Source: Candidatus Methanarcanum sp. (lineage in GTDB: Archaea > Thermoplasmatota > Thermoplasmata > Methanomassiliicoccales > Methanomethylophilaceae). Taken from it: a DNA stretch of 64,000 nucleotides. The position numbers and the translations under genes are program-made. Numbering within the stretch: position 1 is the first letter of the stretch; the number at the start of each line of letters is the position of its first letter. Shown here one piece after another: positions 29,677-45,975 of this stretch. Where the stretch lies: the NCBI GenBank assembly GCA_045600635.1, contig JAZRYJ010000011.1, forward strand, positions 18,440-82,439. Reading direction: 5' to 3'. Under the pieces are notes generated by a model. That model worked only from the letters and a program-made list of their open reading frames with translations. It was not told the DNA's origin and made no database searches.

Positions 29677-30981
29677 ATGCAGTATCGCAGCTGCAACACT
29701 GCCGAAGCTGATGTCGGCATGGAATTTTACCTCACGGATACCGACGGTACAGGTGGATCCATTAAAGATTCGGCCGATGATTTCATCGTAAAGGAGATAT
29801 CCAACCGCCCTGCGGAAAAGGAAGGCGGAAAATTCACTATCGCCGATGTTACAACAAAGAACTGGGAGACCAATCGTTTAGTCAGACTTCTTGCGAGAAC
29901 GATGGGTATCTCGAGAGAAAAGATCGGTTTTGCAGGTACGAAGGACAAAAGAGCGATAACCACACAACTGATGTCGTTCGAATGTCCTCCTGAAAGGATA
30001 GATCTCGTAACGTTAAATGACATCAGATTCGAGAACATCTACACTGCGAACCGCGGACTCAGAGTCGGAGACCTCATTGGGAATCATTTTGACATTCGTG
30101 TCAGGAACTGCAAAGTGGAACAATCGAAGATATCTGAATTGATACAGCATGACATCGAGATAATCAACAACGTAGGCGGATTCCCCAACTACTTCGGAGT
30201 CCAAAGATTCGGTACGACGAGACCGATAACACATATCGTCGGAGAGAAACTGGTGCGCGGAGACATCAAAGGTGCCGTGATGGCCTATATCTCCCATCCG
30301 TCCGATGTTGAAGGAGAGGACCTACAAGCAATAAGAAAAAGATTCAGGGACGGAGAGGATTATTCATCGATAATACCTGATATGCCAAAGACCATGGGAT
30401 TCGAAAAGGCGATGGCCGAACATCTGATAAGACAGCCTGATGATTACACCGGTGCGATCGCTGAGATGCCCGGAAACCTCCAGATGATGTTCACTCACGC
30501 ATATCAATCGTATCTTTTCAATATGATGCTCAGCGAAAGGATGAGGCAGGGGATCCCCCTCAATTCACCTATCGAAGGCGATGTCGTCATCCCGTTAGAT
30601 GCGGACGGAAATCCCATGCATGACAATCCGATCATCGTCACAGAAAAGAACATCGATCTTGCAACAAGACAGGTCAGCAGAGGAAGGGCATTCATCTCTA
30701 TCGTCCTTTACGGAACTGACAGCAGATTCGCAGAAGGTAGGATGGGTGAGATTGAAAAGAAGATCATTGAGAATGAGAAACTTGAAGAAAAGAACTTCAT
30801 CATCCAAGGTCTCCCCCACTGTACATCCAAGGGAACAAGAAGAGAGATAATCTGTCCAATCAGGGATCTTGATTTCAAGATCGAGGATGAAGGCTATTCT
30901 GTAAGATTCTCTCTTCCGAAAGGCAACTACGCCACATGCCTTATGCGTGAACTTCTGAAATCAGATATGACCGACTACTGA
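29677..30981 (+). CDS. truD: tRNA pseudouridine(13) synthase
   Basis: FAGTKDKRAITTQ, GNHFDIRVR, PNYFGVQRFG, FSLPKGNYAT. Confidence 0.97.
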   Translation: MQYRSCNTAEADVGMEFYLTDTDGTGGSIKDSADDFIVKEISNRPAEKEGGKFTIADVTTKNWETNRLVRLLARTMGISREKIGFAGTKDKRAITTQLMSFECPPERIDLVTLNDIRFENIYTANRGLRVGDLIGNHFDIRVRNCKVEQSKISELIQHDIEIINNVGGFPNYFGVQRFGTTRPITHIVGEKLVRGDIKGAVMAYISHPSDVEGEDLQAIRKRFRDGEDYSSIIPDMPKTMGFEKAMAEHLIRQPDDYTGAIAEMPGNLQMMFTHAYQSYLFNMMLSERMRQGIPLNSPIEGDVVIPLDADGNPMHDNPIIVTEKNIDLATRQVSRGRAFISIVLYGTDSRFAEGRMGEIEKKIIENEKLEEKNFIIQGLPHCTSKGTRREIICPIRDLDFKIEDEGYSVRFSLPKGNYATCLMRELLKSDMTDY

Positions 30982-33663
30982 ATCATCTCTGAATGATAAC
31001 ATCATTACAGTCCTGGCTGTGAATACGCCTATACTGTATCTCCTCATGACGTCGTAGATATCAAGATCGCCTTCGGTATCTTTGGTCTCCGACAATATCT
31101 CATTGACCCTGAGGTTGAATTCAGCAGGTACAAGGTCCATCTCCAACGCCTTATACACATATGCGATGAGTCTCTTGGCCTCATCAACATCATATGCACC
31201 TGATCTCAGGAATGCAGTCTGCAACGGCAGCAGATGTGTCTTTCCGATATCTTTTATTCCGCCGTTGATAACAGCATTATATGACAGATCCTCCATCCTG
31301 TTGAAATCATCGTCATTCGGTACGATGATGCCGTAATCCTTAATGTCGGACATGTATGACAGCACCCTATCCCTCATATCGACGGGTATATCTGCCTCTG
31401 TCATCAATGACGGACTGTCCAGATCCTCATCTTTCCCGTCAGAGCACATCAATAATTTTTCTGCATACGCTTTTACATCAGATTCATCAGGAACGGATAC
31501 TGTCTCCTCTTCGACCTCTTCTTTTTCATTATTCGTAAGATCGAAGTATATGGTTTTGCACTCTTCATCATCCGGTTCCAAGGACAGGATCGCTTTGCAC
31601 ATAGCCTTGGCCTCATCGATGTCGCCGATAGAGATGCAGATGTCACGTTTGGCCCTCATTATTGATATGTCATCGGGGCATATCTCCATAGCGATGTTCA
31701 CGAAAGATAATGCATCGTTCTTCCTGCCGATCTTGAAAAGGATGCTACTCTTCATCATCAATGAATAAACATTATCTGGATGCAGGTCGATGACATGGTT
31801 CAGTGCATCGACGGCAGTCGCATAGCTGCCTCCCTTTTCATGAACGGCAGCTTTGGAGATCCAATATTCAGTATTATCGAGATCCAACAATACTGCTCTG
31901 TCGTATGCGGTCTCTGCACTCTCATAATCCTCTATAGCTTCCGATGCCATCCCTTTGGAGTGCCACACCATGGGGTTGTTTGGATCGAGATCCAGTGATC
32001 TTTCGTATGAACTGCAGGCATCGGAATAACGTCCTATCGCATATTCAGCATTGCCCTTTATTGCAAAAACATCCGATGTGGAATAAATGTCATCATACTG
32101 ATCTATGATATTAATGGCCTCTTCATATCTCTTCTTCTCCATCAACGATGTTATCACAGTCATGAATAACAACGGATCAATTTTGAGCTCTATAGCTTCA
32201 CGGTAAAGTGAGATAGCCTCATCGCTCTTCCCTGTATCCTCAAGGATCGATGCTATATCCTGGATGTTATCAACATCTGAAGGATTCATCTCCCTTATGG
32301 TCTGACAGATCTGATATGCGAATTCCAGATCTCCTGTTTCTCTGACGATCTTCTTCTTAAGTGATAATGCATCTATGTTGCGATCATCTGCAGTGAGTAT
32401 TTTGTCAACATCATTCAATGCTTTACGGATCTTTCCGAGACTGAGATATATCTCTGACCTCAGGATTCTGCATTCAGGAGCTCCCGATGATCTCCTGACC
32501 GCTTTGGAAATGTGAGCCAATGCTTTCTTAGGTCTGCCGGAATAGAATTCATTCTTTGCGGTCAGATAAGGTACGAGATACGAATCATCATCGGACATCA
32601 TCATCCTGTCTATGATGTGCGACGCCTGTGCGAACATCGATTTAGATATCATGAGTTCAGCAACGAACGCATATCCTTTGACACCCGCATAATCATTGTA
32701 CAGATACATATCAGCATAATCTGACAGCGATTCGAGATCGTCCATCGATGCATACACTGAGATTTTGGTCTCCATCAGCCTCTGTTCTGTATCGCATATC
32801 TTCTCAAGATCGCTGCATATCGATAATGCATCTTTGAACGAACCGGACGCAAGACATGCTCTGGCCATCTCCAATCTTACTGAAAATGTCGGATCTTTTA
32901 TCTTTTTAAAATGCTCTACTGCACCGACATTGTCATTGAAGCCTACCAGGAATCTCGCTGCGGCCAACATGTAGTCGTCATTGCATTCTCCGTATGGTGT
33001 GGAGCGCTTCAGCATATCAAATGCCAATAATCTGTTCCCGGATCCCCAATTGAGATAAATGCTGTACAGATCCTCGATCCTGTCGGTCGCGATACAATCA
33101 AGCTGAGGGGTGCTCTCTCCGGCCAGTATTCTCTGTATCCATCCACGATATTCCCATTTTCCGTTTCTATCAAGAGATTGAAGACGTTCATAAACCTCCA
33201 TCTTATCTGAGTTATACTTCAATGACGCAATGAAGTGCATCTTCGCATCGTTCAGGAAGCCCATGTCCAACGCTGTCAATCCGCGCTCATATTCCCAGGA
33301 TGCAGGGTCGTTATCAACAGTCATGCTGTCAAGCACTGTTGCTGATAATTCTGCTGAGTTGTTCTCCCTCAATATCCTGGAGGCTTTCAACCTAGGTTTT
33401 GAATCATATGCTTTGCATCTGTCCAATACTTTCAGTATGATATTGCATAGATCCTTGTATTTGTAAAGCACCATCAGATCCATCACTTTGCATAATATGG
33501 CGGAATTTACAAAACTCTCACTCTCAATGATGTCATTCACAACTTTGACCAATTTCGGATAACTGGAATCGATTCTCCTGGATGAGACATTCTCTAACAA
33601 AACAAGATGCTTCCATAATCTGCATTCATCAATATTTGAAAATACAGCTGCATCCTCATCCAT
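30961..33663 (-). CDS. Large tetratricopeptide-repeat protein
   Basis: Many TPR units (e.g. YERSLDLDPNNPMVWHSKG, YDRAVLLDLDNTEYWISKA). ATG 33663 is preferred over GTG 33714. Confidence 0.88.
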   Translation of the reverse strand: MDEDAAVFSNIDECRLWKHLVLLENVSSRRIDSSYPKLVKVVNDIIESESFVNSAILCKVMDLMVLYKYKDLCNIILKVLDRCKAYDSKPRLKASRILRENNSAELSATVLDSMTVDNDPASWEYERGLTALDMGFLNDAKMHFIASLKYNSDKMEVYERLQSLDRNGKWEYRGWIQRILAGESTPQLDCIATDRIEDLYSIYLNWGSGNRLLAFDMLKRSTPYGECNDDYMLAAARFLVGFNDNVGAVEHFKKIKDPTFSVRLEMARACLASGSFKDALSICSDLEKICDTEQRLMETKISVYASMDDLESLSDYADMYLYNDYAGVKGYAFVAELMISKSMFAQASHIIDRMMMSDDDSYLVPYLTAKNEFYSGRPKKALAHISKAVRRSSGAPECRILRSEIYLSLGKIRKALNDVDKILTADDRNIDALSLKKKIVRETGDLEFAYQICQTIREMNPSDVDNIQDIASILEDTGKSDEAISLYREAIELKIDPLLFMTVITSLMEKKRYEEAINIIDQYDDIYSTSDVFAIKGNAEYAIGRYSDACSSYERSLDLDPNNPMVWHSKGMASEAIEDYESAETAYDRAVLLDLDNTEYWISKAAVHEKGGSYATAVDALNHVIDLHPDNVYSLMMKSSILFKIGRKNDALSFVNIAMEICPDDISIMRAKRDICISIGDIDEAKAMCKAILSLEPDDEECKTIYFDLTNNEKEEVEEETVSVPDESDVKAYAEKLLMCSDGKDEDLDSPSLMTEADIPVDMRDRVLSYMSDIKDYGIIVPNDDDFNRMEDLSYNAVINGGIKDIGKTHLLPLQTAFLRSGAYDVDEAKRLIAYVYKALEMDLVPAEFNLRVNEILSETKDTEGDLDIYDVMRRYSIGVFTARTVMMLSFRDDSVVGHI

Positions 33664-33826
33664 AATTGCATATTGCTGAAAAGATAAAAGATATTTTCCT
33701 ATCGGAATCCACATCTATACGGTCTTTAACAGAAATTTTGATTTGTAATGCACGGGTGATCAAGCCAGTGTTCGAAAACATACTTCGCTATTGTTATATA
33801 CTGCCTGTCGATTATCCAGAATCAGT

Positions 33827-33901
33827 GCATTCGTGATCTAGGGGCTAGGATTCAAGCCCTCCAAGCTTGTTGCCCGGGTTCGATTCCCGGCGGATGCACC
33901 A
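33827..33901 (+). tRNA. tRNA-Gly (TCC), CCA encoded, with non-canonical C33
   Basis: Acceptor GCATTCG/CGGATGC + A-CCA; D stem ATCT/GGAT; anticodon stem CAAGC/GCTTG with loop CCTCCAA; T arm CCGGG-TTCGATT-CCCGG; TTATATA box upstream. Confidence 0.92.
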
Positions 33902-33928: not shown

Positions 33929-34885
33929 TCATTGCTTGAAATCTTCCGGAACACCTGCGGATCTGCATCCCATATCGAAACATCCTATGGCTGCAACCGA
34001 ACCGATGACGCCGCCGTTCCCTTTCACAAGAGGATAGATCTTGATGTTATTCCTCTCAGCAATCTCTAAAGCATCTTCTGGTTTGAAAAGTATGCTCTTG
34101 CAATCCCATCCGAACTTCGACAACTCCTCTGGTATTTCAAGTCCTTGGTAGACCGTCATCACCGCATCATCAGAATATGTGTCCTTTATGATGAAATCCT
34201 TAGCATATTCAATCAATGAATCCACCTCAGATTCTCTGACCGCAAATGACACTGCAGTTGAACAGCAATTTGTAGTCTTCATCGGTGCCTTAGGATTGAG
34301 TTGGATGATCTTGTGCTCAAGGAATTTACCTATAGGGCAGTTCATACCGAGTTTCATACCGGTAACCCATGTCGCACCTTTCTCCTTGGTATCTGTATCG
34401 TCTATTCCGATGATCACGCGCACCATCTTCGGCGTTATGATATCAACACTGGATACGTGTCCTCCCCCGATCTTGAAATCATCAGGATATTCTGTATAGA
34501 TCACATCTTTACATGACGGAAGACATGCTCCAATACCTACAGTGGCACCTGCCATGGCACACCATGATATGCGCACCCTGTCTCCCTCGATAGACACTTT
34601 GTTGATACATCTTGCACCGAGACCTTCAGAAACAGCTCCGAAATGTGCTTCAGCCTCACCGATTCTTGCATCGATCTCCATCGTACCGTGTCTATCGACA
34701 ACATTGCTGACCAGTCCTTTCGAACGGCGCATATTGACTATGTCCCATTCAGAAGGGCCGACGGAAGTACATGACTCGATGATCTTGATCTTACCTGCTT
34801 TTTCATCGACCAAGGTTATGAACCTTTTACAGAATGTCTTCCCGTATTTCTTCTCGACTTGTTCCGGAGTAAGTGTCTGTACCAT
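33929..34885 (-). CDS. mmp11: Methanogenesis marker protein 11-like (TiaS-related IDDTD domain)
   Basis: IIGIDDTDTKEKGATW, HKIIQLNPKAPMKTTNCCSTA, N-terminal IESCTSVGPSEW. Confidence 0.8.
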   Translation of the reverse strand: MVQTLTPEQVEKKYGKTFCKRFITLVDEKAGKIKIIESCTSVGPSEWDIVNMRRSKGLVSNVVDRHGTMEIDARIGEAEAHFGAVSEGLGARCINKVSIEGDRVRISWCAMAGATVGIGACLPSCKDVIYTEYPDDFKIGGGHVSSVDIITPKMVRVIIGIDDTDTKEKGATWVTGMKLGMNCPIGKFLEHKIIQLNPKAPMKTTNCCSTAVSFAVRESEVDSLIEYAKDFIIKDTYSDDAVMTVYQGLEIPEELSKFGWDCKSILFKPEDALEIAERNNIKIYPLVKGNGGVIGSVAAIGCFDMGCRSAGVPEDFKQ

Positions 34886-34959
34886 GATACCTATCTCTTA
34901 AGAGCAACAGAGTAGTATGCAACGTTGTTTAATACTATTTCGATAAACCAACCAGCATT

Positions 34960-35979
34960 TCAAATGTCTTTGAACGGAACTATATCACAGCATGTACATC
35001 TGAGGCACATGGTTTTCATGTCAGTTCCCAGTGAGTATTTTTCAAGGATGTGCTTTTGAGACTTCGCAAGTCTGATGATCCTCTCAGATGATAGCGTCTC
35101 TGTGTCGCCCAACACTCTTCTGATGTTTTCCTTCACAATACCTGATGATTTCAACGGCCTCAGTCCGGGAATTACACCGATTGATGCCAATCTCTCCATG
35201 ATATTAATGACATCATCATCGGATTCCCCCAATCCTATTATGATGTTGGATGTTACATTCCCCTTTCCGAAAACTTCAACCGAATACTCCAACATTCTGA
35301 AGATGTTGTCATAATCCAACCCAGGACACGCCTTGTTGAACAATTCTTTGTTGACTGTTTCACAATTGATCTTGATCTCAGTTATTCCCGAAGCATAAAG
35401 TTGATCCACCTGTTCTTTGGATTCAACATACGGCTCTGCTCCGACAGGCATATCCGAAAATGCTTCTTTTACTGCTCTGGCACATTCGCATATCCTATCG
35501 ATGGTATTTTGAACTGATCCGATGACGCCGCTTGTGAATGCGACTGACTCGATAGCAACATATGAATCTCTTATCTTCTGAACTATAACGTCCTTGTCCT
35601 GTCCCTTGTATGTAGAATCACCTAACATCGGTGATGCACAATAGATACATTTGTAGATGCATCTCTGATCCAGATTGAAGAATGCCTGCTCAGGGCAATG
35701 ATAACCCACTGGCACTATTGTCACATTTTTGATGTACGGTTTACCTTTCCTCATTATCGCGAGTGATTCGCCGTCATTCTTCAATGAGAATTCCCTCTCG
35801 TTCCTCGATATCGCTTTTTTCACTCTCATTCCGGAGAAACCGAGAACGATGGATTCCGACCCTGCGCCCGGGCCTGCGGTCGATTTGGATATACGTACAG
35901 GTATAATTACATCATCTGGCACATATACTGCATCAGCAAGTATCAATTCCGCTTTCTTCGCAGCCAAATCAAAATCCAT
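34960..35979 (-). CDS. Radical SAM enzyme, biotin-synthase-related (COG2516/MSMEG_0568-like)
   Basis: CIYKCIYC, STAGPGAG, FGKGNVTSNIIIGLGE, C-terminal CLRCTCC; start MDFDL at 35979. Confidence 0.85.
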   Translation of the reverse strand: MDFDLAAKKAELILADAVYVPDDVIIPVRISKSTAGPGAGSESIVLGFSGMRVKKAISRNEREFSLKNDGESLAIMRKGKPYIKNVTIVPVGYHCPEQAFFNLDQRCIYKCIYCASPMLGDSTYKGQDKDVIVQKIRDSYVAIESVAFTSGVIGSVQNTIDRICECARAVKEAFSDMPVGAEPYVESKEQVDQLYASGITEIKINCETVNKELFNKACPGLDYDNIFRMLEYSVEVFGKGNVTSNIIIGLGESDDDVINIMERLASIGVIPGLRPLKSSGIVKENIRRVLGDTETLSSERIIRLAKSQKHILEKYSLGTDMKTMCLRCTCCDIVPFKDI

Positions 35980-36046
35980 GGAGTGTACTGTCCTTCTGCA
36001 ATAATAAAGGATGCGAACCTTAATAGTAGAATTGTGTTCAGCAATC

Positions 36047-36880
36047 ATGCACTGCAAGGATGTTTCCATCCGCGATGTCGATTTCTCTCTGACGAAAGAG
36101 AGCATCGATTCTCAGATGAAAGATTGGAATTCATACACCCGTACTGAATACATGGTGTTCCGCAATGATGACCGCTATGCTGTAGTGCATTTCCTATCAA
36201 AGGAAAAATCAACTTCATTGTTCAAAAAAGTAAATAAATTCAAGATCTTAGCACTGCCTGATGATATAATCTACATAGAGATCCCCGATCTGGATGTACT
36301 CAATGTCCCTGCATTGGCAAAGATACAACAGATGCATCCGAACAAAGGCATCGTTGTGAAAGGGATGTTCTCCCATGTCGTTTTCATAAAGGATCTTGAA
36401 CCGCTGTATCTTCATATTGTTGACAATATCCCGCCCAGTCCTGCGAAGCTCACTGTTCTTGTTCAGAAAGCATTGGATTCAGGATTCATCGATTATCCGA
36501 TAATCCCTGTAGAGCATATCATCGACATGGATGATAGTATCGGGAATGCTAATACTGAATCGATCATGTTCCCGTGTAAAGTCTCCGGATTGAAAGGCGG
36601 TAGGAGAACATACTATCTGGACGAGGCCCCTGACATCGAAGAGGATGTCACTCTCATCGGCTGTCACCTTTCCAAACGCATCTTCGAATCGATATACGGA
36701 AAAGAACCTGACTTCATCAATGTTTGTCCTGCTGATTTCACAGAAGGAAAAAGAAAATGCATTGTCAAATGTTGCAAGATCAAGAATGATCATGTCATCA
36801 ATGATGAGATCGCACAGGTCCCTTGGGGTGCTACTGTCCCTGAGGTCGTAGATGCTATAAACGACCTCTTCAAAGATTGA
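36047..36880 (+). CDS. Conserved-looking Cys-rich hypothetical protein
   Basis: FPCKVSG, LIGCHLS, NVCP, KCIVKCC, QVPWGA; ATG 36047 preferred. Confidence 0.75.
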   Translation: MHCKDVSIRDVDFSLTKESIDSQMKDWNSYTRTEYMVFRNDDRYAVVHFLSKEKSTSLFKKVNKFKILALPDDIIYIEIPDLDVLNVPALAKIQQMHPNKGIVVKGMFSHVVFIKDLEPLYLHIVDNIPPSPAKLTVLVQKALDSGFIDYPIIPVEHIIDMDDSIGNANTESIMFPCKVSGLKGGRRTYYLDEAPDIEEDVTLIGCHLSKRIFESIYGKEPDFINVCPADFTEGKRKCIVKCCKIKNDHVINDEIAQVPWGATVPEVVDAINDLFKD

Positions 36881-36892
36881 AAGAAACCATGA

Positions 36893-38326
36893 TCAATCGT
36901 GATGATGATGCTCATGCTTTGCTGTATGAACATTCTTCTTTCCGATCACAATGTAGTAATCGCCGTCATCACGTGAGAATATCACTTCAAGACCGTTAAT
37001 ATGGAAGAATTCCGACATCACATCAACGTCCGGAAGATAATCTGCACAGATCTCGACCCCTCCTGTTTCATGCACGTTGTTGATGTGTTCTTTGGATGAT
37101 GAATGCGCTATTGTGAGTGTGCCTCCCATCTTCAATGCATGTGAGAGGATGTGTATCGCTTCCACTGGGTCCGGGAAATGAGGGAAACAAGAATAACAGA
37201 CGATTCTGTCATACCTCTCGTTCTCTTTCATATCATAGATGTCGATCACTTTGTATTCCAGCATATCAGACTCAGGATTCTTGGATCTGGCCACTTCAAT
37301 CATGTTCTCTGAATAATCGACTGCTGTTATGTGTCCGGCCTTCATCCTTGATAGATATGGGTTGATCATCACACCTGTGCCGGTGCCGACGTCTAATATC
37401 TCTGAATCATCCTTGATATCCAACAGATCGACGATGTACTCCACTTTCTTCATATCATGAATGCTCATACCATCCCATTTATCAGCCCTGTCATTGAAGA
37501 ATTCCTTCTGTTTCGGATTCTTCTTCCTCTTTGACAGGAAATCGCTGGCCTTCTTCGAGATCATATGATGCATCTCATTCGGAACTATCACTTTATATCC
37601 GTTCACTTCTCCGACGGAAACTTCGATGCCGTATACCTCACGTATATTCTCAGGCGTTATCACTTCGCTTCCTCCGGATGCGAATATCTTACCATCTTTC
37701 ATCAGGATGAAACGATTGGAAAATCTCAATGCGAGATTCAGATCGTGATTGGTCATCACCGCACACATTCCGTTATTACGGACGATGTGTGCCAGCTTAT
37801 GCAGTACCTCATACTGGTTCTTAATGTCGAGATTGCTGGTTGGTTCATCGAGGAGCAGTACTTTAGGCTGCTGTACGATCGCCCTTGCTATCTGCACCAG
37901 CTGATACTCTCCGCCTGATACCTCATTCACCTTCTTATCTGAAATCGAAGAGATGCCCAGTGTCTCAATGACTCTGGAGACCAATTTGATATCCTTGTCC
38001 GTCACATCTACCGTGATGTATGGTTTCCTTCCTATCAGCACAGATTCAAAAACCGTACTTCCGGATACCTGTGAACTCTGAGGCACATATCCGATCTTCT
38101 TTGCGATTTCCGTTCTCTTCATAGAGAGTATGTCATCATTTTCAACTAAGACCGTACCAGAAACAGGTGTGTGGATATTGTTGATGCACTTCAGAAGTGT
38201 CGTCTTTCCTACACCGTTCGGACCCAGGATAGATACCACATCGCCCTCGGATGCTTCGAATCCCACATCTGATAATGTATTCTCAGAATCATAACTGAAT
38301 TGAATGTCAGCAATCTTCAGTATCAT
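36893..38326 (-). CDS. FecE/BtuD-type ABC ATPase fused to a class I SAM methyltransferase, with His-rich tail
   Basis: GPNGVGKT, VSGGE, LLLDEPT, H-loop; then ILDVGTGTG, VDYSENMI, YSCFPHF; ends HTAKHEHHHHD; ATGA overlap with the permease. Confidence 0.9.
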   Translation of the reverse strand: MILKIADIQFSYDSENTLSDVGFEASEGDVVSILGPNGVGKTTLLKCINNIHTPVSGTVLVENDDILSMKRTEIAKKIGYVPQSSQVSGSTVFESVLIGRKPYITVDVTDKDIKLVSRVIETLGISSISDKKVNEVSGGEYQLVQIARAIVQQPKVLLLDEPTSNLDIKNQYEVLHKLAHIVRNNGMCAVMTNHDLNLALRFSNRFILMKDGKIFASGGSEVITPENIREVYGIEVSVGEVNGYKVIVPNEMHHMISKKASDFLSKRKKNPKQKEFFNDRADKWDGMSIHDMKKVEYIVDLLDIKDDSEILDVGTGTGVMINPYLSRMKAGHITAVDYSENMIEVARSKNPESDMLEYKVIDIYDMKENERYDRIVCYSCFPHFPDPVEAIHILSHALKMGGTLTIAHSSSKEHINNVHETGGVEICADYLPDVDVMSEFFHINGLEVIFSRDDGDYYIVIGKKNVHTAKHEHHHHD

Positions 38327-39441
38327 TCTCTGTACCTCCTTATCAGGACATATATGAATGCAGGTCCGCCCAATATGGATGTCAGAAGGCCGATAGGTAG
38401 CATGACTGGATAGCATATGTTGATAGAAACGATGTTGGCTATCATAAGCAACAGCCCTCCGAATAACACGGAAATCGGTATCAGGTACCTGTGATCATTA
38501 CCTACGACCATACGTGCGATGTGCGGACCAAGCAATCCTACGAATGCGATGACTCCGAATCTGCAGACGATCAATGCCGCCAATACAGACGATATGATGA
38601 GTCCGATATTCATGAATCCTTTCGTATCAACGCCCAACCCCTTTGCGACATCCTCTCCGGCTTCCATTGCATTCATCGTCCAACGGTTGCAATAGAAGAA
38701 AATGAAAGCTATGACGAATCCTATTGCAATTGCCAGATCCCATGTCCAATCCGCATTGGCAACGGATCCGAACATCCACGACACAATCCTGCTGAGTTGT
38801 GACGGATCAGCGATGTATTGCATCAGTGTTATGCCTGCAGAGAATATCGCGCTGACCGCTATCCCCGACAGCACCATTGTTTCGGCCGAAATGTTGGTGA
38901 CTTTGGTCAGCAGTATTATCAGCCCTGTGGCCAGCAATGCGAATACAAATGCGAGTATAGGGGTTATCGCCTGTGAAAGAACCGTTCCGATGAAAAGATT
39001 CTCGATGAATATCGTGGATAACGCAGCACCGAAGGCTGCAGCATTGGACAACCCCAATGTGAACGGTGATGCCAATGGATTCTTCAGAATGCATTGCATG
39101 ACGGTTCCTGAAAGTGACAACGCAGCGCCTGTGATCAAGGCTGCGACCATTATCGGGAGATCCACGTTCCAGACGAATTTACCTACCATGGTGGAAAGAT
39201 CGTGTGTAAAGAATGCTGCCAATGCTCCGATCACATCGAAACGGATATTGTTCACAATGATAGTGACAAAGATCATTATCACCACAGCGATTATCGAACC
39301 TATGATCCACCTTTTCTTCTTCTGAACAGATGCTCTGTATGATGTCTCCGTCACAGATGTCTCTTCGTCCAGATTGTCATAGATCTTGTAATCTCTCGTC
39401 TTCTCACCAATCCAACCATCCAGTACCGTGTGATTGATCAC
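38323..39441 (-). CDS. FecCD/BtuC-type ABC permease
   Basis: GAALSLSG..MQ..LKNPLASPFTLG, G.IAFVGL..PHIAR, PIGLLTS..GGP. Confidence 0.95.
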   Translation of the reverse strand: MINHTVLDGWIGEKTRDYKIYDNLDEETSVTETSYRASVQKKKRWIIGSIIAVVIMIFVTIIVNNIRFDVIGALAAFFTHDLSTMVGKFVWNVDLPIMVAALITGAALSLSGTVMQCILKNPLASPFTLGLSNAAAFGAALSTIFIENLFIGTVLSQAITPILAFVFALLATGLIILLTKVTNISAETMVLSGIAVSAIFSAGITLMQYIADPSQLSRIVSWMFGSVANADWTWDLAIAIGFVIAFIFFYCNRWTMNAMEAGEDVAKGLGVDTKGFMNIGLIISSVLAALIVCRFGVIAFVGLLGPHIARMVVGNDHRYLIPISVLFGGLLLMIANIVSINICYPVMLPIGLLTSILGGPAFIYVLIRRYRE

Positions 39442-40525
39442 GAATGATGTCGTCGACAGTCATGTCTGTATTGGGGTAGAACAGTTCCAACACTTCATCC
39501 ATTTTATCATCAATATCATAATCGAAAATATCTGGATCCAAAACTGAACCGATGAAATACGCATTCATCAATTCGGACTCCCAATTGGTACCATAGTATT
39601 TCCAGATGAATAATGAGAATATCCTTTCATCAGCAACACTGTTGTTTTTGACGGCAGAAGTCTCATTCAGCCCTTTGTTCCTGTCATCATTAAATTGTTC
39701 ATGCGACTGTTCATACGTCATCGCATCAATGAAAATGTACTCCGTATTACTTGATGACACTGCGGTAATGTTGGTCAAATACGGATTTCCACCCATTTTT
39801 TCTTCCATCACATTCTCTAACCCGACCAACTCGAATGGATGATAGTTTCCTGTGGTCATATAGAAGCCGCCGTTCATCATATAGAACATGCCGCCGATGT
39901 ATGCAGAATGATTGCCTGTCACTTTTACTGACATCTCTTTAAGTTCATTCTGCATCACATTTATGCCGTTCAGAAGTTCGTCAGCACGTTCCTTCCTATT
40001 GAGGACGTCCCCGATGATCCTGATGTTCTTCTCGAACATCTTACTGCCGAGGTCGACATTGCCTTCCGCATTTACGGCCACTACAGGGATTCCTGTCACA
40101 GTCTGCAATGTATTAAGAGTATCGATCGATTCCTTGGAAGTGATTATCACCTGCGGATCGACACTCATGATCTCTCTGTAACTGGTCTCGTCTCCGATAC
40201 ATTGTATCTTCTTGATCTCCGGATGTATGATGCGGTATGTGGCACATGCATATTTATCAGAATGCAAAATGTCCGCGTCCTTACTGTCAATACCGACAAT
40301 CTTGTCAACAGCATCAAAATATGCCATCAATCTGACAGAACCAGCTGAAAGACACACGACTCTGCTGATGTCACCGGGTATCATCACATGTCTGTTACGT
40401 GCATCGACTATCTCGACATCTCCGGATGTATTGTTGCCGCTTACGGGTATAAAAATGACTATCGCTGCTGCTATAACCAATACTGCTGCGATGACTGCAA
40501 TCGTCTTTTTTGTAGCACCATCCAT
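39404..40525 (-). CDS. Class III (iron-chelate/cobalamin) ABC substrate-binding protein
   Basis: N-terminal anchor, DARNRHVMIP.DISRVVCL, E.IMSVDPQVII. Confidence 0.9.
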   Translation of the reverse strand: MDGATKKTIAVIAAVLVIAAAIVIFIPVSGNNTSGDVEIVDARNRHVMIPGDISRVVCLSAGSVRLMAYFDAVDKIVGIDSKDADILHSDKYACATYRIIHPEIKKIQCIGDETSYREIMSVDPQVIITSKESIDTLNTLQTVTGIPVVAVNAEGNVDLGSKMFEKNIRIIGDVLNRKERADELLNGINVMQNELKEMSVKVTGNHSAYIGGMFYMMNGGFYMTTGNYHPFELVGLENVMEEKMGGNPYLTNITAVSSSNTEYIFIDAMTYEQSHEQFNDDRNKGLNETSAVKNNSVADERIFSLFIWKYYGTNWESELMNAYFIGSVLDPDIFDYDIDDKMDEVLELFYPNTDMTVDDIIRDQSHGTGWLDW

Positions 40526-40675
40526 ATTTGCACACTCTGGTATTGTATACTCCTAAATACACCGAATATATTAAACGAGCATTACCGAAAAGGATAATGA
40601 GTTTTTAACACTAATACAGATTCGAATTTGATTCTTCCCTCTTTTTTATATATAGCCCTACTATAAAGGAGGTCC

Positions 40676-42481
40676 GTGCAAGACATATTATCGGCATTGG
40701 GGAACATCGGTACAGAAGGTGGCATCACAGAAAATATGTTGATTACAACAATGGCTGTAATGTTGCTTCTAGCTGGCATATGTGCTGTCATTTTCCACAA
40801 AATAAGACTCCCGCCGATAGTCGGTTACCTTATCGCCGGAATAATAATTGTCAATGTCTTCTCCGATGAAGATTTCACTAAGATTTTCAGTGTAGAAACA
40901 ATCGGTGTGCTGAAAAATATCGGATTAATCATGCTTATGTTCGGTATCGGTACTGAACTCAATTTCAATAAGGTGAAAAAAGCAGGAAAATTCGCCATTC
41001 TTGTTGCCGTCATCCAATTGCCGTTGATGGTACTTTCTGGATGCATCTTAGGCGCAATGATATTTAATCTGAATCCGACGGCTGCGATCACACTCGGTGC
41101 TGTCATATCAGGTTCGAGCACTGCAGTCGTGGCTGCCGTATTGAAGTCACAGAAACGCATCTCGCAGGAAGACTATGATACACTGATTCTCGTAACAATC
41201 ATGGAAGACATCGGTCAAGTCATAATATTGTCGATGATCACACCGTTATTCGCAGGAGCTCAAAGCGATGCGTATGAACTCATAGCGCTGATTATAAAGA
41301 TCATTCTGTTCATGGTCATAAGCATAGTACTTGGTCTTAAGGTAGTACCGCGCATTCTCAATTGGATTGGTGACAAGACCAACAGTGAGATACTTCTTGT
41401 CCTGTCTATCGGACTCTGTTTCGGAATGGCATGGTTATCCAGCTCCATAGGGATGTCCACTGCTATCGGTGCATTCCTCATGGGGATGATTGTTTCTCAA
41501 AGCAAGTATGCGCCCGACATTGAGAAGAAAACTGACCCTATGAAGGCTGTGTTCATGGCAGTATTCTTCATCTCAATCGGTATGGAGGTAGGAATCAATG
41601 AATTCATTGACAGTCTACCTATGGCCATCGGTATCGCAGCGATATTCATGATATCCAAATTGGTGACAGTGTTCATCGGATACTTCGTTGGCGGGAAGAG
41701 ATTCGGCATCAGCTTCATTTCTTCTATATCACTCATGGCCATGGGTGAATTCGCATTCATCATATCCAGTCAGGCTCATAACAGTGGTGTCGTAAGTGAC
41801 AACTTCTACTTTGCAGTCATCGGTGCTGCGATAATCACGATGATATTGATGCCCATATTCGCAAACAAATCATTCGATATCGCAGACAAAGTTGAAGAGA
41901 ACAAGAACAGTGATTCTTTCATATACCGTGTCGGCAGACGTATCTACGGCATCAGAGAGGATGTTGCAACAAAGATTGAAACTTCACCTTCCGTCGGAGA
42001 TGTAGTGAAGAAGAATCTCAAAAAGTCATACTTCTGTCTTCTCCTTATCGTCGTGATTCAGATCATATTCTCATGCGCATCATATGACATCACCAAATTC
42101 TTCGTCAAATTAGTAGAACAATTTGTCGAATTCGACAACATAGAATTTGTTGTGAACATCTGTGTAATGACCGTTAATTTCATCTTGCTCACAATTCCGA
42201 CATCGTACTTCATCATCTCATTGAAAGGCATAGGCAGAATCATGACTGAAGAATTGGAACCGAATGCGACTGAAGGAGAAAAGAGGAAGAGAGCGATTAA
42301 ATTGAGGATACTTGGCGTAAGTACATTCGCATTTGTCGTTGCAATAGATTTCATCATCATGGCGGTGACACCGGGACCATTCGGTGGAAAAGGTACGCTC
42401 ATTGTCATTCCGATAGCAATAATAATATTATTGCTCGGATGGTTCCTTTCCGGTCTGAAAACCAAGAAAGAAACCGAGTAA
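40676..42481 (+). CDS. CPA2-family cation:proton antiporter (KefB-like membrane domain)
   Basis: LPPIVGYLIAG, SSTAVV, LVTIMEDI, GAFLMG, MGEFAFII; AAGGAGG RBS before the GTG. Confidence 0.9.
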   Translation: MQDILSALGNIGTEGGITENMLITTMAVMLLLAGICAVIFHKIRLPPIVGYLIAGIIIVNVFSDEDFTKIFSVETIGVLKNIGLIMLMFGIGTELNFNKVKKAGKFAILVAVIQLPLMVLSGCILGAMIFNLNPTAAITLGAVISGSSTAVVAAVLKSQKRISQEDYDTLILVTIMEDIGQVIILSMITPLFAGAQSDAYELIALIIKIILFMVISIVLGLKVVPRILNWIGDKTNSEILLVLSIGLCFGMAWLSSSIGMSTAIGAFLMGMIVSQSKYAPDIEKKTDPMKAVFMAVFFISIGMEVGINEFIDSLPMAIGIAAIFMISKLVTVFIGYFVGGKRFGISFISSISLMAMGEFAFIISSQAHNSGVVSDNFYFAVIGAAIITMILMPIFANKSFDIADKVEENKNSDSFIYRVGRRIYGIREDVATKIETSPSVGDVVKKNLKKSYFCLLLIVVIQIIFSCASYDITKFFVKLVEQFVEFDNIEFVVNICVMTVNFILLTIPTSYFIISLKGIGRIMTEELEPNATEGEKRKRAIKLRILGVSTFAFVVAIDFIIMAVTPGPFGGKGTLIVIPIAIIILLLGWFLSGLKTKKETE

Positions 42482-42571
42482 CTTGTGATTCTTTTTAATT
42501 TTTTCAAATTTTAAATTTAGTTTATCCTAAATATGTATTTTAAACACATATGCCAGCACATTCTACAAATG

Positions 42572-42610
42572 TTTTATTTTAAAATTACATTATTTGATTT
42601 TAAAATAAAA
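42572..42610. repeat. 14-bp perfect inverted repeat in the AT-rich region upstream of ppsA
   Basis: TTTTATTTTAAAAT-(11 nt)-ATTTTAAAATAAAA. Confidence 0.6.
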
Positions 42611-42704
42611 ATTAATCAAAAGACTATTAAATGCCTATCATAATCCGAACTCAGATGCACAGGCATATCGAATAATCCCAAATTCGAAGAATACCGGCGA
42701 TATT

Positions 42705-45026
42705 ATGGAAAGAAAAATAATTGATGTGAACGAATTGTGTGTGAATGACATCCCTATTGTTGGCGGAAAAGGAGCCAACTTGGGTGAGCTTACAAGAGCA
42801 GGATTTCCTGTCCCGAATGCTTTTGTACTGACGACTGCCGCATATGACTACTTCATCAAAAAGAGCAACATATTCGACAGAATCAATGAAGAACTGAAAG
42901 GAATCGACAGAAACTCTGATGACAGCCTTACAAAGGCGTCAGAGAAGATCAGAGACATATTTGAAAAATGCGAGATTCCTTCAGATCTGAAAAAGGACAT
43001 CATTTCAAGCTATCACAAACTCTTCGGCAACAACAAGGAAGGTTTCGTTGCAGTACGTTCATCTGCAACTGCTGAAGATCTCCCGGATGCATCATTCGCA
43101 GGACAGCAGGAGACATACCTGAATGTTCACGGAGAGGATGATCTCTTCGATAAAGTCAGAAAATGCTGGTCATCGCTTTTCACAGCAAGAGCTATCGCAT
43201 ATCGTGAAAAACAGGGATTCGCACATGAGGATGTAAAACTCGCAGTAGTGGTTCAAAAAATGGTCAATTCTGAAGTATCAGGAATCATGTTCACTGTTGA
43301 CCCGAACAGCGGTGTCAAAGAGATTGTCATCGAAGCCGGTTTCGGTCTCGGAGAAGCTATCGTCGGCGGAGAAGTCACACCTGATACATACAAAGTCGAC
43401 AAATCGACGATGACCGTGAAGAAGAAAAGAATCTCCACACAGAAATGGAAATACACCAAAGATGCAAAAGACGGACATACTGTCAAAGTGAATATTCCTG
43501 AGAAACAACAGAAAATTCAGAAGATCGACGACCGTCGCGTATCAGAGGTCGCAGAGATCGGCAGACAGATTGAGATTCACTACGACAAACCGATGGATAT
43601 GGAATGGTGTATCGAAGACAATAAGGTCTACATCGTTCAGGCCAGACCCATCACGGCTGTCGGAGATTCAGCCACTAATGAGACCGTGGGTGAAGAAGTC
43701 GCAAGCGAAGATATTCTTACAACAGGTCTCGGTGCAAGTCCGGGTTTCGCTTCGGGAAAAGTGTGCATCTTCGATATGTCCATGTCGCTCGATGTGGTAA
43801 AGGACGGAGATATCCTTGTCACTACAATGACGATGCCTGATATGGTCCCGGCCATGAGCAGAGCTGCAGCAATTGTCACGGATGAAGGAGGGATGACATG
43901 TCACGCTGCGATTATCTCAAGAGAATTGGGAACTCCGTGTGTCGTAGGAACAGGAAATGCCACTTCAATACTGAAGAACGGCCAGATGATCACCGTTGAC
44001 GGTACCACAGGTACTGTCTACAAAGGCGACCTCGCAAAGAAAAAAGGAGACAAAGCACCCGAACAACAGACAACAACTGTATTCGCAGAGTCAGCACCTG
44101 TTACAGGTACAGGCGTAATGGTCAACATGAGCATACCTGCGAAAGCCGAAGAAGTGGCAAGTCTTCCAGTCGACGGTGTAGGGCTCATGAGATCAGAATT
44201 CCTCTTCACCAATTACATCGGTGAGCACCCGCTCGCAATGATTGCTGAAGGAAGAGCAAATGAGATGATTGATAAACTCGCAGACGGTATCGCAAAAGTC
44301 TGCCGTGCGTTCTATCCGAGAAAGATAGTTCTCAGAACATCTGACTTCAAAACGAATGAGTACCGTGACATGAAAGGCGGTGCAGAATACGAACCTGAAG
44401 AGGACAACCCTATGATCGGCTGGAGAGGATGCTCGAGATATGTCTCACCTGACTACAAAGAAGCATTCATGTGCGAACTTCAGGCGATAAAGAAAGTACG
44501 TAATGAGATGGGCATGAAGAACCTATGTGTCATGCTTCCGTTCGTCAGAACTGTTGAGGAAGCGAGAGAGATCGTAGGCTACATGGAAAGTATCGGACTG
44601 AAAAGAAGTAAAGATTTCAAACTCTACTTCATGGCAGAGATTCCGGCCAACATATTCATGGCAGATGAATTCTCCAAGTACTGTGACGGATTCTCCATCG
44701 GATCCAATGATCTTACTCAACTCACGATGGGTGCCGATAGGGATTCGGATATCCTCGGACGCATGGGATACTTCGACGAAAGAAATGAAGCTGTCAAGAG
44801 AGCAATCAGTCATCTTATCAAAGTGGCTCATGAGAACAACGTGACAGTCGGAATCTGCGGTCAGGGGCCGTCAGTGTATCCTGAATTCACAGAATTCCTT
44901 GTAAGAGAGGGAATCGATTACGTTTCACTCAACCCCGATACAGTCATCAAAACAAAGAAGATGATCGCATCTGTCGAACAGAAGATCATCCTTGAAGGCC
45001 TCAGAGAACTGAGGAACAGACAGTGA
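42705..45026 (+). CDS. ppsA: Phosphoenolpyruvate synthase (pyruvate, water dikinase)
   Basis: VGGKGANLGEL, VRSSATAEDLPDASFAGQQET, GGMTCHAAI (phospho-His), NPMIGWRG, FSIGSNDLTQL. Confidence 0.98.
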   Translation: MERKIIDVNELCVNDIPIVGGKGANLGELTRAGFPVPNAFVLTTAAYDYFIKKSNIFDRINEELKGIDRNSDDSLTKASEKIRDIFEKCEIPSDLKKDIISSYHKLFGNNKEGFVAVRSSATAEDLPDASFAGQQETYLNVHGEDDLFDKVRKCWSSLFTARAIAYREKQGFAHEDVKLAVVVQKMVNSEVSGIMFTVDPNSGVKEIVIEAGFGLGEAIVGGEVTPDTYKVDKSTMTVKKKRISTQKWKYTKDAKDGHTVKVNIPEKQQKIQKIDDRRVSEVAEIGRQIEIHYDKPMDMEWCIEDNKVYIVQARPITAVGDSATNETVGEEVASEDILTTGLGASPGFASGKVCIFDMSMSLDVVKDGDILVTTMTMPDMVPAMSRAAAIVTDEGGMTCHAAIISRELGTPCVVGTGNATSILKNGQMITVDGTTGTVYKGDLAKKKGDKAPEQQTTTVFAESAPVTGTGVMVNMSIPAKAEEVASLPVDGVGLMRSEFLFTNYIGEHPLAMIAEGRANEMIDKLADGIAKVCRAFYPRKIVLRTSDFKTNEYRDMKGGAEYEPEEDNPMIGWRGCSRYVSPDYKEAFMCELQAIKKVRNEMGMKNLCVMLPFVRTVEEAREIVGYMESIGLKRSKDFKLYFMAEIPANIFMADEFSKYCDGFSIGSNDLTQLTMGADRDSDILGRMGYFDERNEAVKRAISHLIKVAHENNVTVGICGQGPSVYPEFTEFLVREGIDYVSLNPDTVIKTKKMIASVEQKIILEGLRELRNRQ

Positions 45027-45030
45027 ATAT

Positions 45031-45054
45031 GGTCGTGGCCAGACGGCCACGGCC
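45031..45054 (+). terminator. GC-rich stem-loop after ppsA
   Basis: GGTCGTGGCC-AGAC-GGCCACGGCC, 10 bp with one G-U pair. Confidence 0.6.
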
Positions 45055-45122
45055 GTTCCAAACTACTTATCGTTCTTTTATAGCAATAATCTTAAATACA
45101 ACATTAACATCGGTGCGATTGG

Positions 45123-45244
45123 TATGACGGCCATAGCGGCGGTGTAACACCCGGTCCCATTCCGAACCCGGCAGTAAAGCCCGCCTGCGTCTCTGTTTGT
45201 ACTGTATTGCGCAAGTGTACGGGAATTCAGAAACGCTGTCAGCC
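45123..45244 (+). rRNA. rrf: 5S rRNA, unlinked from 16S/23S
   Basis: GGCCATAGCGG, CCCGGTCCCATTCCGAACCCGG.AGT.AAGC, terminal TGACGGC/GCTGTCA helix; ends approximate. Confidence 0.95.
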
Positions 45245-45315
45245 ACTTATTCCACTTCAATTCTTTCAATGTACATTCTGACAATAAATTGATTATCTGC
45301 TCTCTCCTTTCATGG

Positions 45316-45975
45316 ATGATGACATCCATCGACGGTTTCGAAGTCAACATTCAAAGAAAGAAGATAAAGAATCTTCATCTCAGAGTGACAAATGATGGTG
45401 ATATCGTTTTGTCCATACCGATGAAATATCCGATTGATGATGCAATCGAATTTGTAAAAAATAATGAAGATTGGATCAGAAAACGCATAGAATATGTGAA
45501 TTCAACAAAGATCGAATACATAGACGGTGAAACTATAACGATTCTCGGAAAGTCTGTAACGCTCCGCATAATTATTTCAAATATCTGTTCAGCCAGAATT
45601 CTTAATGATGAAGTTATTCTTACGATAACAGATGACGACGTGAAAATCAAACAATTTGCTCTCCGCAAACTCCACTCAGATATCGTTAAAGAAATTGCAG
45701 ATAAATTCATTCCAAAATGGGAAGAAATCACAGGATTGATGTCCTCCTCATATCAAACAAGATACATGAAAACACGTTGGGGGACATGCAATCACAAAAC
45801 AAGAAAGATCTGGCTGAGCACTGAATTAGCGAAGAAACCGATCGAATGCATAGAGTATGTGATACTTCATGAGATCATACACTTACAAATCCCCAATCAC
45901 GGTGATGAATTCAAAGAATTGATGACAGAATACATGCCTGATTGGAAAGAGAGAAGAAGGATGTTAAAGAACTGA
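45316..45975 (+). CDS. M48/YgjP-like (SprT-family) metal-dependent hydrolase
   Basis: MKTRWGTCN, YVILHEIIH, NHGDEF. Confidence 0.9.
   Translation: MMTSIDGFEVNIQRKKIKNLHLRVTNDGDIVLSIPMKYPIDDAIEFVKNNEDWIRKRIEYVNSTKIEYIDGETITILGKSVTLRIIISNICSARILNDEVILTITDDDVKIKQFALRKLHSDIVKEIADKFIPKWEEITGLMSSSYQTRYMKTRWGTCNHKTRKIWLSTELAKKPIECIEYVILHEIIHLQIPNHGDEFKELMTEYMPDWKERRRMLKN

Follow-up and report, generated by a model that had tools for sequence, protein, structure and literature searches.

The stretch of DNA analysed here (64,000 nt in full, hereafter the window) belongs to a methanogen of the phylum Thermoplasmatota. Its whole assembly (G000) is a metagenome-assembled genome (MAG) of 1.53 Mb in 88 contigs, with 44.7% G+C and a completeness of 97%, and McrA is present in it at 903.5 bits. 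We focus on the tRNA-Gly(UCC) gene of the window, whose features are collected in Table 1 together with those of the surrounding locus. The tRNA cloverleaf is complete: the acceptor stem has 7 bp, a D arm is present, the anticodon stem of 5 bp closes a 7-nt loop, and the T-arm loop is of the TTCGA type. Rfam aligns the gene over its full length with RF00005 at 54.1 bits (gathering score 29) and flags no non-standard pair; a weak minus-strand match to Plastid-ycf2 (24.6 bits, cut-off 65.7) was set aside as a tRNA-like artefact. Since the D-loop has the standard 8 nt, linear position 33 is also canonical position 33, and it is here that the gene departs from what is expected of an elongator tRNA: the anticodon loop reads CCUCCAA, with C in place of the uridine of the U-turn.

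Table 1. Features of the tRNA-Gly(UCC) gene and its locus, with positions in the window
Feature	Position	Strand	Basis
Upstream 917-aa ORF	30961..33714	-	Syntenic with the gene upstream of the congeners' tRNA-Gly(UCC); tBLASTx ~30-50% identity, collinear order
TTATATA box, putative archaeal TATA-like promoter element	33794..33800	+	~30 nt upstream of the tRNA; aligned with the TTAAATA/TTATATA box of 10 related loci
tRNA-Gly(UCC) gene, 75 nt, with encoded CCA	33827..33901	+	ARAGORN tRNA-Gly(tcc); Rfam RF00005; positional orthologue of the congeners' U33 genes
tRNA positions 5 and 6, T and C (C and T in congeners)	33831..33832	+	Comparison with ten genus-level orthologues
Anticodon stem, CAAGC	33853..33857	+	
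C32	33858	+	
C at tRNA position 33	33859	+	T in relatives and in all other tRNAs of the genome
Anticodon UCC (TCC in DNA)	33860..33862	+	Sequence, ARAGORN
A37 and A38	33863..33864	+	
Anticodon stem, GCTTG	33865..33869	+	
A73	33898	+	
Encoded CCA	33899..33901	+	
Downstream block of ~11 kb, no counterpart beside the tRNA in congener G003	33929..45300		tBLASTx of the G003 locus against the window
Resumption of synteny with G003	45319..45975		

Few nucleotides in biology are as conserved as U33. Within the assembly, T33 is found in 43 of the 44 tRNA genes, and tRNA-Gly(UCC) is the sole one with C33, a change that costs it ~5 bits in the RF00005 score against the gene of a congener (59.6 bits). The initial annotation had described a gene with C33 that is otherwise intact in its arms, A73, encoded CCA, and promoter. 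Both parts of this description stand, the former by the sequence, ARAGORN, Rfam, and a loop table of all tRNAs, and the latter by the full-length RF00005 alignment without an irregular pair and by the TTATATA box, which aligns with those of the congeners. The columns of this box (29-35) are nearly invariant in the alignment with the 10 related loci. C35, C36, and A73 are identity elements for glycyl-tRNA synthetase (GlyRS), and these same residues (anticodon UCC, discriminator A73) are present in 24/24 orthologues. Elongator function, i.e., expression, charging with glycine, and decoding of GGA, is predicted, as the conserved promoter box and the single-copy status point to it.

Nothing at this position in congener G003 corresponds to the ~11 kb directly downstream of the tRNA; there, ~2.3 kb separates tRNA-Gly(UCC) from the next shared gene. 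The idea that these 11 kb had integrated at the tRNA was considered and rejected, as there is no repeat of the tRNA 3' end within the window.

The same gene was compared in related MAGs, as the initial annotation had advised, and the C33 proved to be unmatched among close relatives. A search of 40 related genomes recovered 24 orthologues, among them ten within the genus, and each has U33 in the loop CUUCCAA; in a separate sample of the family, the U33 gene is present in 44 of 47 genomes and C33 in none of the 47. Given U33 in the orthologues and in the family, the change to C33 must be recent and specific to this species. Compared with the canonical archaeal tRNA-Gly(UCC) of nine congeners (G003-G011, loci L002-L010), which share one identical sequence, the gene lies at the same locus behind the same promoter box and is identical in 72 of 75 nt, including the D arm, T arm, anticodon stem, C32, A37, A38, A73, and the encoded CCA. 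All three differences are transitions. Two of them, C5 to U and U6 to C, leave the pairing with G68 and G67 in place and move the G-U wobble from pair 6-67 in the congeners to pair 5-68; the third is U33 to C. Over 42 tRNA pairs, the tRNAs of this organism differ from those of the near-complete congener G006 by a median of 2.5 nt (range 0-18). Three differences are therefore typical of this species pair and, together with the pair-preserving nature of the changes in the acceptor stem, they indicate that the gene is not decaying.

The initial annotation had reasoned that a canonical Gly-UCC copy elsewhere in the genome would speak against its reading. None was found: ARAGORN, Rfam, BLAST, and a scan for YYTCCAN loops on any hairpin of 5 bp all failed to yield a second Gly-UCC gene in the 97%-complete assembly. 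GGA is, as had been noted at that stage, the commonest Gly codon (42.1%, followed by GGT with 28.5%, GGC with 18.7%, and GGG with 10.7%, in ~387,000 codons of long ORFs). With the sole Gly-UCC gene at the orthologous locus and 42% of Gly codons to be served, the gene (intact, single-copy, and promoter-bearing) should be essential, in agreement with what had been proposed. There is no shift in Gly codons, since usage matches that of the congeners, with 47% GGY.

The assembly also lacks tRNA-Gly(GCC), for which a match is present in 11/11 congeners and in 24/24 family genomes, making it the only one of 25 family genomes without such a match. This absence is most likely an assembly gap: contig C51 breaks off 240 bp beyond the gene that precedes tRNA-Gly(GCC) in the congeners, and tRNA-Leu(CAG), which is present in congener G006, is missing likewise. 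In place of tRNA-Gly(GCC), the tail of this contig (C51:46320-46563, outside the window) carries an inverted repeat, GTTCAGTGT ... ACACTGAAC.

A loss of U33 in this tRNA is not confined to one species. When one genome per species was scanned for the exact anticodon arm, a second Thermoplasmatota MAG emerged with C33 in a different tRNA body, and a scan of 401 Thermoplasmatota genomes for the loop followed by an uninterrupted T arm matched C33 in 17. Sixteen of these are real cases, namely the present assembly and 15 others. The remaining match, in G232, is a scrambled fragment adjoining an intact U33 gene rather than a tRNA, and it was left out of the counts. The corresponding U33 pattern matched 188 genomes, among which none of the 16 C33 genomes, and with a looser pattern five of the C33 genomes again gave C33 genes only. 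The true frequency is probably higher, as a gene interrupted in its T loop by an intron escapes these patterns. Judged by their acceptor, D, and variable regions, the C33 genes form at least five groups, represented by the present gene, G046, G049, G063, and the family f24. As gene bodies and (where called) neighbouring genes differ between the lineages, C33 must have originated independently in them. Outside the present species, at least four lineages of the phylum have C33 fixed in tRNA-Gly(UCC). In genus g104, 8 of 12 species have C33 and none of the 12 has U33. Genera g104, g61, and g131 form one clade in the Elp3 tree (support 98/96), so C33 has persisted there through genus-level divergence in the only GGA decoder. 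The loop CCUCCAA is common to the C33 genes, and positions 32, 37, and 38 show no co-variation with the change. No description of this pattern in Thermoplasmatota was found in the literature searched.

Several of these loci have features of their own. The C33 gene of G049 has tRNA-Pro as a neighbour, and in family f24 (L033-L044, L049) a tRNA-Leu(UAA) gene, interrupted by a 31-43-nt intron, follows the C33 gene after ~20-50 nt, a pair kept in several genera. The scrambled copy in G232 (contig C15, L045:1400-1553) consists, in order, of the tRNA 3' end, a piece running from the D arm to the anticodon stem, a GC-rich structured insert of ~55 nt, and a 3' half that starts inside the anticodon loop. 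Such a copy might represent a tRNA that was permuted or rearranged, or else what is left of an att site.

The other glycine isoacceptors served as a control. The pattern used for Gly-GCC and Gly-CCC was loose, and its 33 genome matches were mostly other tRNAs or chance hits; among the 12 loci examined, no tRNA-Gly(GCC) had C33. C33 was seen with this control pattern in the tRNA-Gly(CCC) of G063, G052, and G196. In genus g60 (G063 and G052; L032, L125/L126), the tRNA-Gly(UCC) and tRNA-Gly(CCC) bodies are nearly identical and both carry C33. This resemblance points to an event later than the origin of C33, either a recent switch of the anticodon or gene conversion between the isoacceptors.

Taken together, we consider it probable that the gene encodes an ordinary, expressed, single-copy elongator tRNA-Gly(UCC) with a real, lineage-specific change from U33 to C33, which would be charged with glycine and decode GGA and probably GGG. 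The C33 is most likely a tolerated natural variant, private to the species and one of several independent cases in the phylum, and this reading is favoured because tRNA-Gly(UCC) has undergone the same exchange, to fixation, several times in other parts of the phylum.

How could a decoder do without U33? The N3-H of U33 bonds to the phosphate of nucleotide 36, which C33 cannot do unless it is protonated. Without this bond, the anticodon loop would presumably stay usable, as it does in the eukaryotic initiator tRNA and in the tRNA-Cys of Sulfolobales. A glycine tRNA reading GGR may well tolerate C33 better than other tRNAs do: from what is generally known of tRNA tuning, its two C-G pairs between anticodon and codon would provide binding energy to spare. 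With that reserve, C33 could be nearly neutral and could have been fixed by drift in this species. Folding is, as modelled, a small cost that counts against C33. In a nearest-neighbour model that works without tertiary contacts and modifications, a helix that competes with the cloverleaf, formed by the D-loop and positions 29-34, gains 2.8 kcal/mol from C33. This non-cloverleaf helix (D-loop G15-U20 with A29-U34) is preferred for the C33 gene and for the U33 genes of the congeners alike, and C33 adds a G16-C33 pair to it, so that the minimum-energy fold lies 5.2 instead of 2.4 kcal/mol below the cloverleaf.

The initial annotation had also allowed for a plain sequencing error. In that case the C would stem from a wrong base call or consensus, or from a minority strain whose variant ended up in the MAG, and the real tRNA would have U33. 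There is something to be said for this: T is found in all 24 orthologues, with no congener having C33, the C at position 33 rests on the consensus of one MAG in 88 contigs, and two metagenome scans gave no independent assembly with the allele. Substitution errors in assembled consensus sequences are rare, though, and C33 is biologically plausible, as the same tRNA has it as its fixed natural state in no fewer than four further lineages. Moreover, two further changes in the gene are specific to the species and preserve pairing, and in overall divergence the gene is ordinary for this species pair. The recurrence makes an error less likely than a real variant. We hold it to be unlikely, although the single MAG consensus leaves it some weight.

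If the C33 is real, it may be adaptive rather than merely tolerated. One version of this idea is that C33 exempts the tRNA from modification by Elp3 and TrmJ, so that an unmodified U34 reads more of the GGN codons and could cover for the missing tRNA-Gly(GCC); another is that it protects against a nuclease that cleaves the anticodon loop. In published assays, U33C stops the tRNA-triggered acetyl-CoA hydrolysis by human Elongator and the formation of mcm5U34 in yeast (PMC11096365), and it abolishes the activity of SaTrmJ, the Cm32 methyltransferase of Sulfolobus (PMC4105751). Both enzyme families are encoded in the assembly, with a full Elp3 (679.6 bits) and a TrmJ-family protein (196 bits). 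A side effect of this kind is predicted for a merely tolerated C33 as well: should these homologues behave like their studied counterparts, the C33 tRNA would be hypomodified and lack xm5U34 and Cm32. That C33 recurs specifically in tRNA-Gly reading GGR and that tRNA-Gly(GCC) is missing here while the congeners and the family have it would also fit the first version.

On the other hand, the supposed need for broader reading finds little backing. tRNA-Gly(GCC) is kept in 9 of 10 other C33 genomes, its absence here looks like the contig-end gap described above (with tRNA-Leu(CAG) gone as well), and codon usage is as in the congeners. Superwobble in place of a lost tRNA-Gly(GCC) was rejected on these grounds, and the altered wobble that had been put forward at the outset receives no support from them. 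Nor does anything hint at a shifted reading frame or at glycine inserted at UGG/UGA, which had been named there too. Elp3 does not separate the two states either, as it occurs in 5/5 C33 and 5/5 U33 genomes of f24; with Elp3 also present in this assembly, the opposite idea, a loss of Elp3 that relaxed the constraint on U33, falls away too. For the second version, no nuclease candidate was identified. An adaptive origin of either kind is thus improbable in our view. We see only a slim chance for the boldest form of the idea, in which C33 would be a natural off-switch for U33-dependent Elp3 and TrmJ by which archaea repeatedly arrive at a tRNA-Gly(UCC) that is hypomodified, has an unmodified U34, and reads GGN more broadly, a tRNA that may here also cover for a truly lost tRNA-Gly(GCC).

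Another explanation would turn the gene into a decaying or specialised, non-ribosomal copy, with the canonical Gly-UCC gene hidden in an assembly gap. Non-proteogenic tRNA-Gly(UCC) of staphylococci binds EF-Tu weakly. It sets a precedent for such a specialised copy (PMC4574755), and the assembly does lack at least two tRNA species that G006 has. However, the gene sits in the orthologous position behind a conserved promoter box, its T arm is identical to that of the congeners, its other changes keep pairing, its divergence is typical, and only one Gly-UCC gene is found among the tRNA genes recovered from near-complete G006. We therefore regard this explanation as very improbable. A non-proteogenic tRNA-Gly of the Fem type, which would be an extra copy with weakened T-stem pairs, was rejected in particular, given that no second Gly-UCC gene was found and that the T stem (CCGGG/CCCGG) does not differ from the congeners'.

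C-to-U editing of tRNA does occur in archaea, at position 8 (CDAT8 of Methanopyrus). That C33 is edited back to U in the RNA, as had also been suggested initially, is nevertheless scarcely credible and without genomic support, since the assembly holds no extra or lineage-specific deaminase but a single, ordinary CDA-fold deaminase (PF00383, ~157 aa), the same sole orthologue that 8 of the 9 congeners searched have alongside U33, and since several unrelated lineages would each need such an activity.

A tolerated C33 in an essential elongator, the reading preferred here, has a different weight for the window than for the phylum. By itself, the window offers a modest finding, a single substitution in the consensus of one MAG, and no hint of recoding. 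Together with the 15 further Thermoplasmatota genomes, it shows that free-living archaea can dispense with U33 in their only GGA decoder, and that they have done so across whole genera. These genes are natural material for asking what U33 contributes to decoding in the A site, why glycine tRNAs reading GGR tolerate its loss, and whether archaeal Elp3 and TrmJ recognize U33 as their eukaryotic and Sulfolobus counterparts do.

The case adds to a small known set of working tRNAs without U33. Textbooks, like recent reviews, name as exceptions only the eukaryotic initiators and a Candida tRNA-Ser, the former with C33 and the latter with G33 (PMC5041475, PMC11122139). The eukaryotic initiator tRNA-Met resembles our tRNA in having C33 in a working molecule (PMC5041475, PMC11122139), whereas ours has a UCC anticodon on a CAAGC/GCTTG stem and must work in the ribosomal A site. 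An initiator identity was rejected for tRNA-Gly(UCC), from which the CAU anticodon and the three consecutive G-C pairs are both absent.

The tRNA-Cys(GCA) of Sulfolobales, which has C33 throughout the clade, is likewise an archaeal elongator and a natural decoder without U33 (PMC7668247). It serves another amino acid in another phylum, and its C33 comes with a G27-U43 pair, whereas the rest of the anticodon arm is unchanged in our case; both are known from their genes. The tRNA-Gly(UCC) for staphylococcal cell-wall pentaglycine shares with ours the isoacceptor and an atypical anticodon loop without the typical U-turn (PMC4574755). Yet the staphylococcal non-proteogenic tRNAs are extra copies beside proteogenic ones, whereas ours is a sole copy, orthologous to a canonical gene and with an unchanged T stem.

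The C33 genes of the other Thermoplasmatota (genera g104, g61, g131, g146, and g144 of f24, and G046, G049, and G063; L031-L049) are the same isoacceptor with the same loop, and each is the only Gly-UCC gene found in its genome. They differ from ours in their acceptor, D, and variable regions and in their neighbours, and the trait that is found here in one species is fixed there across species and genera.
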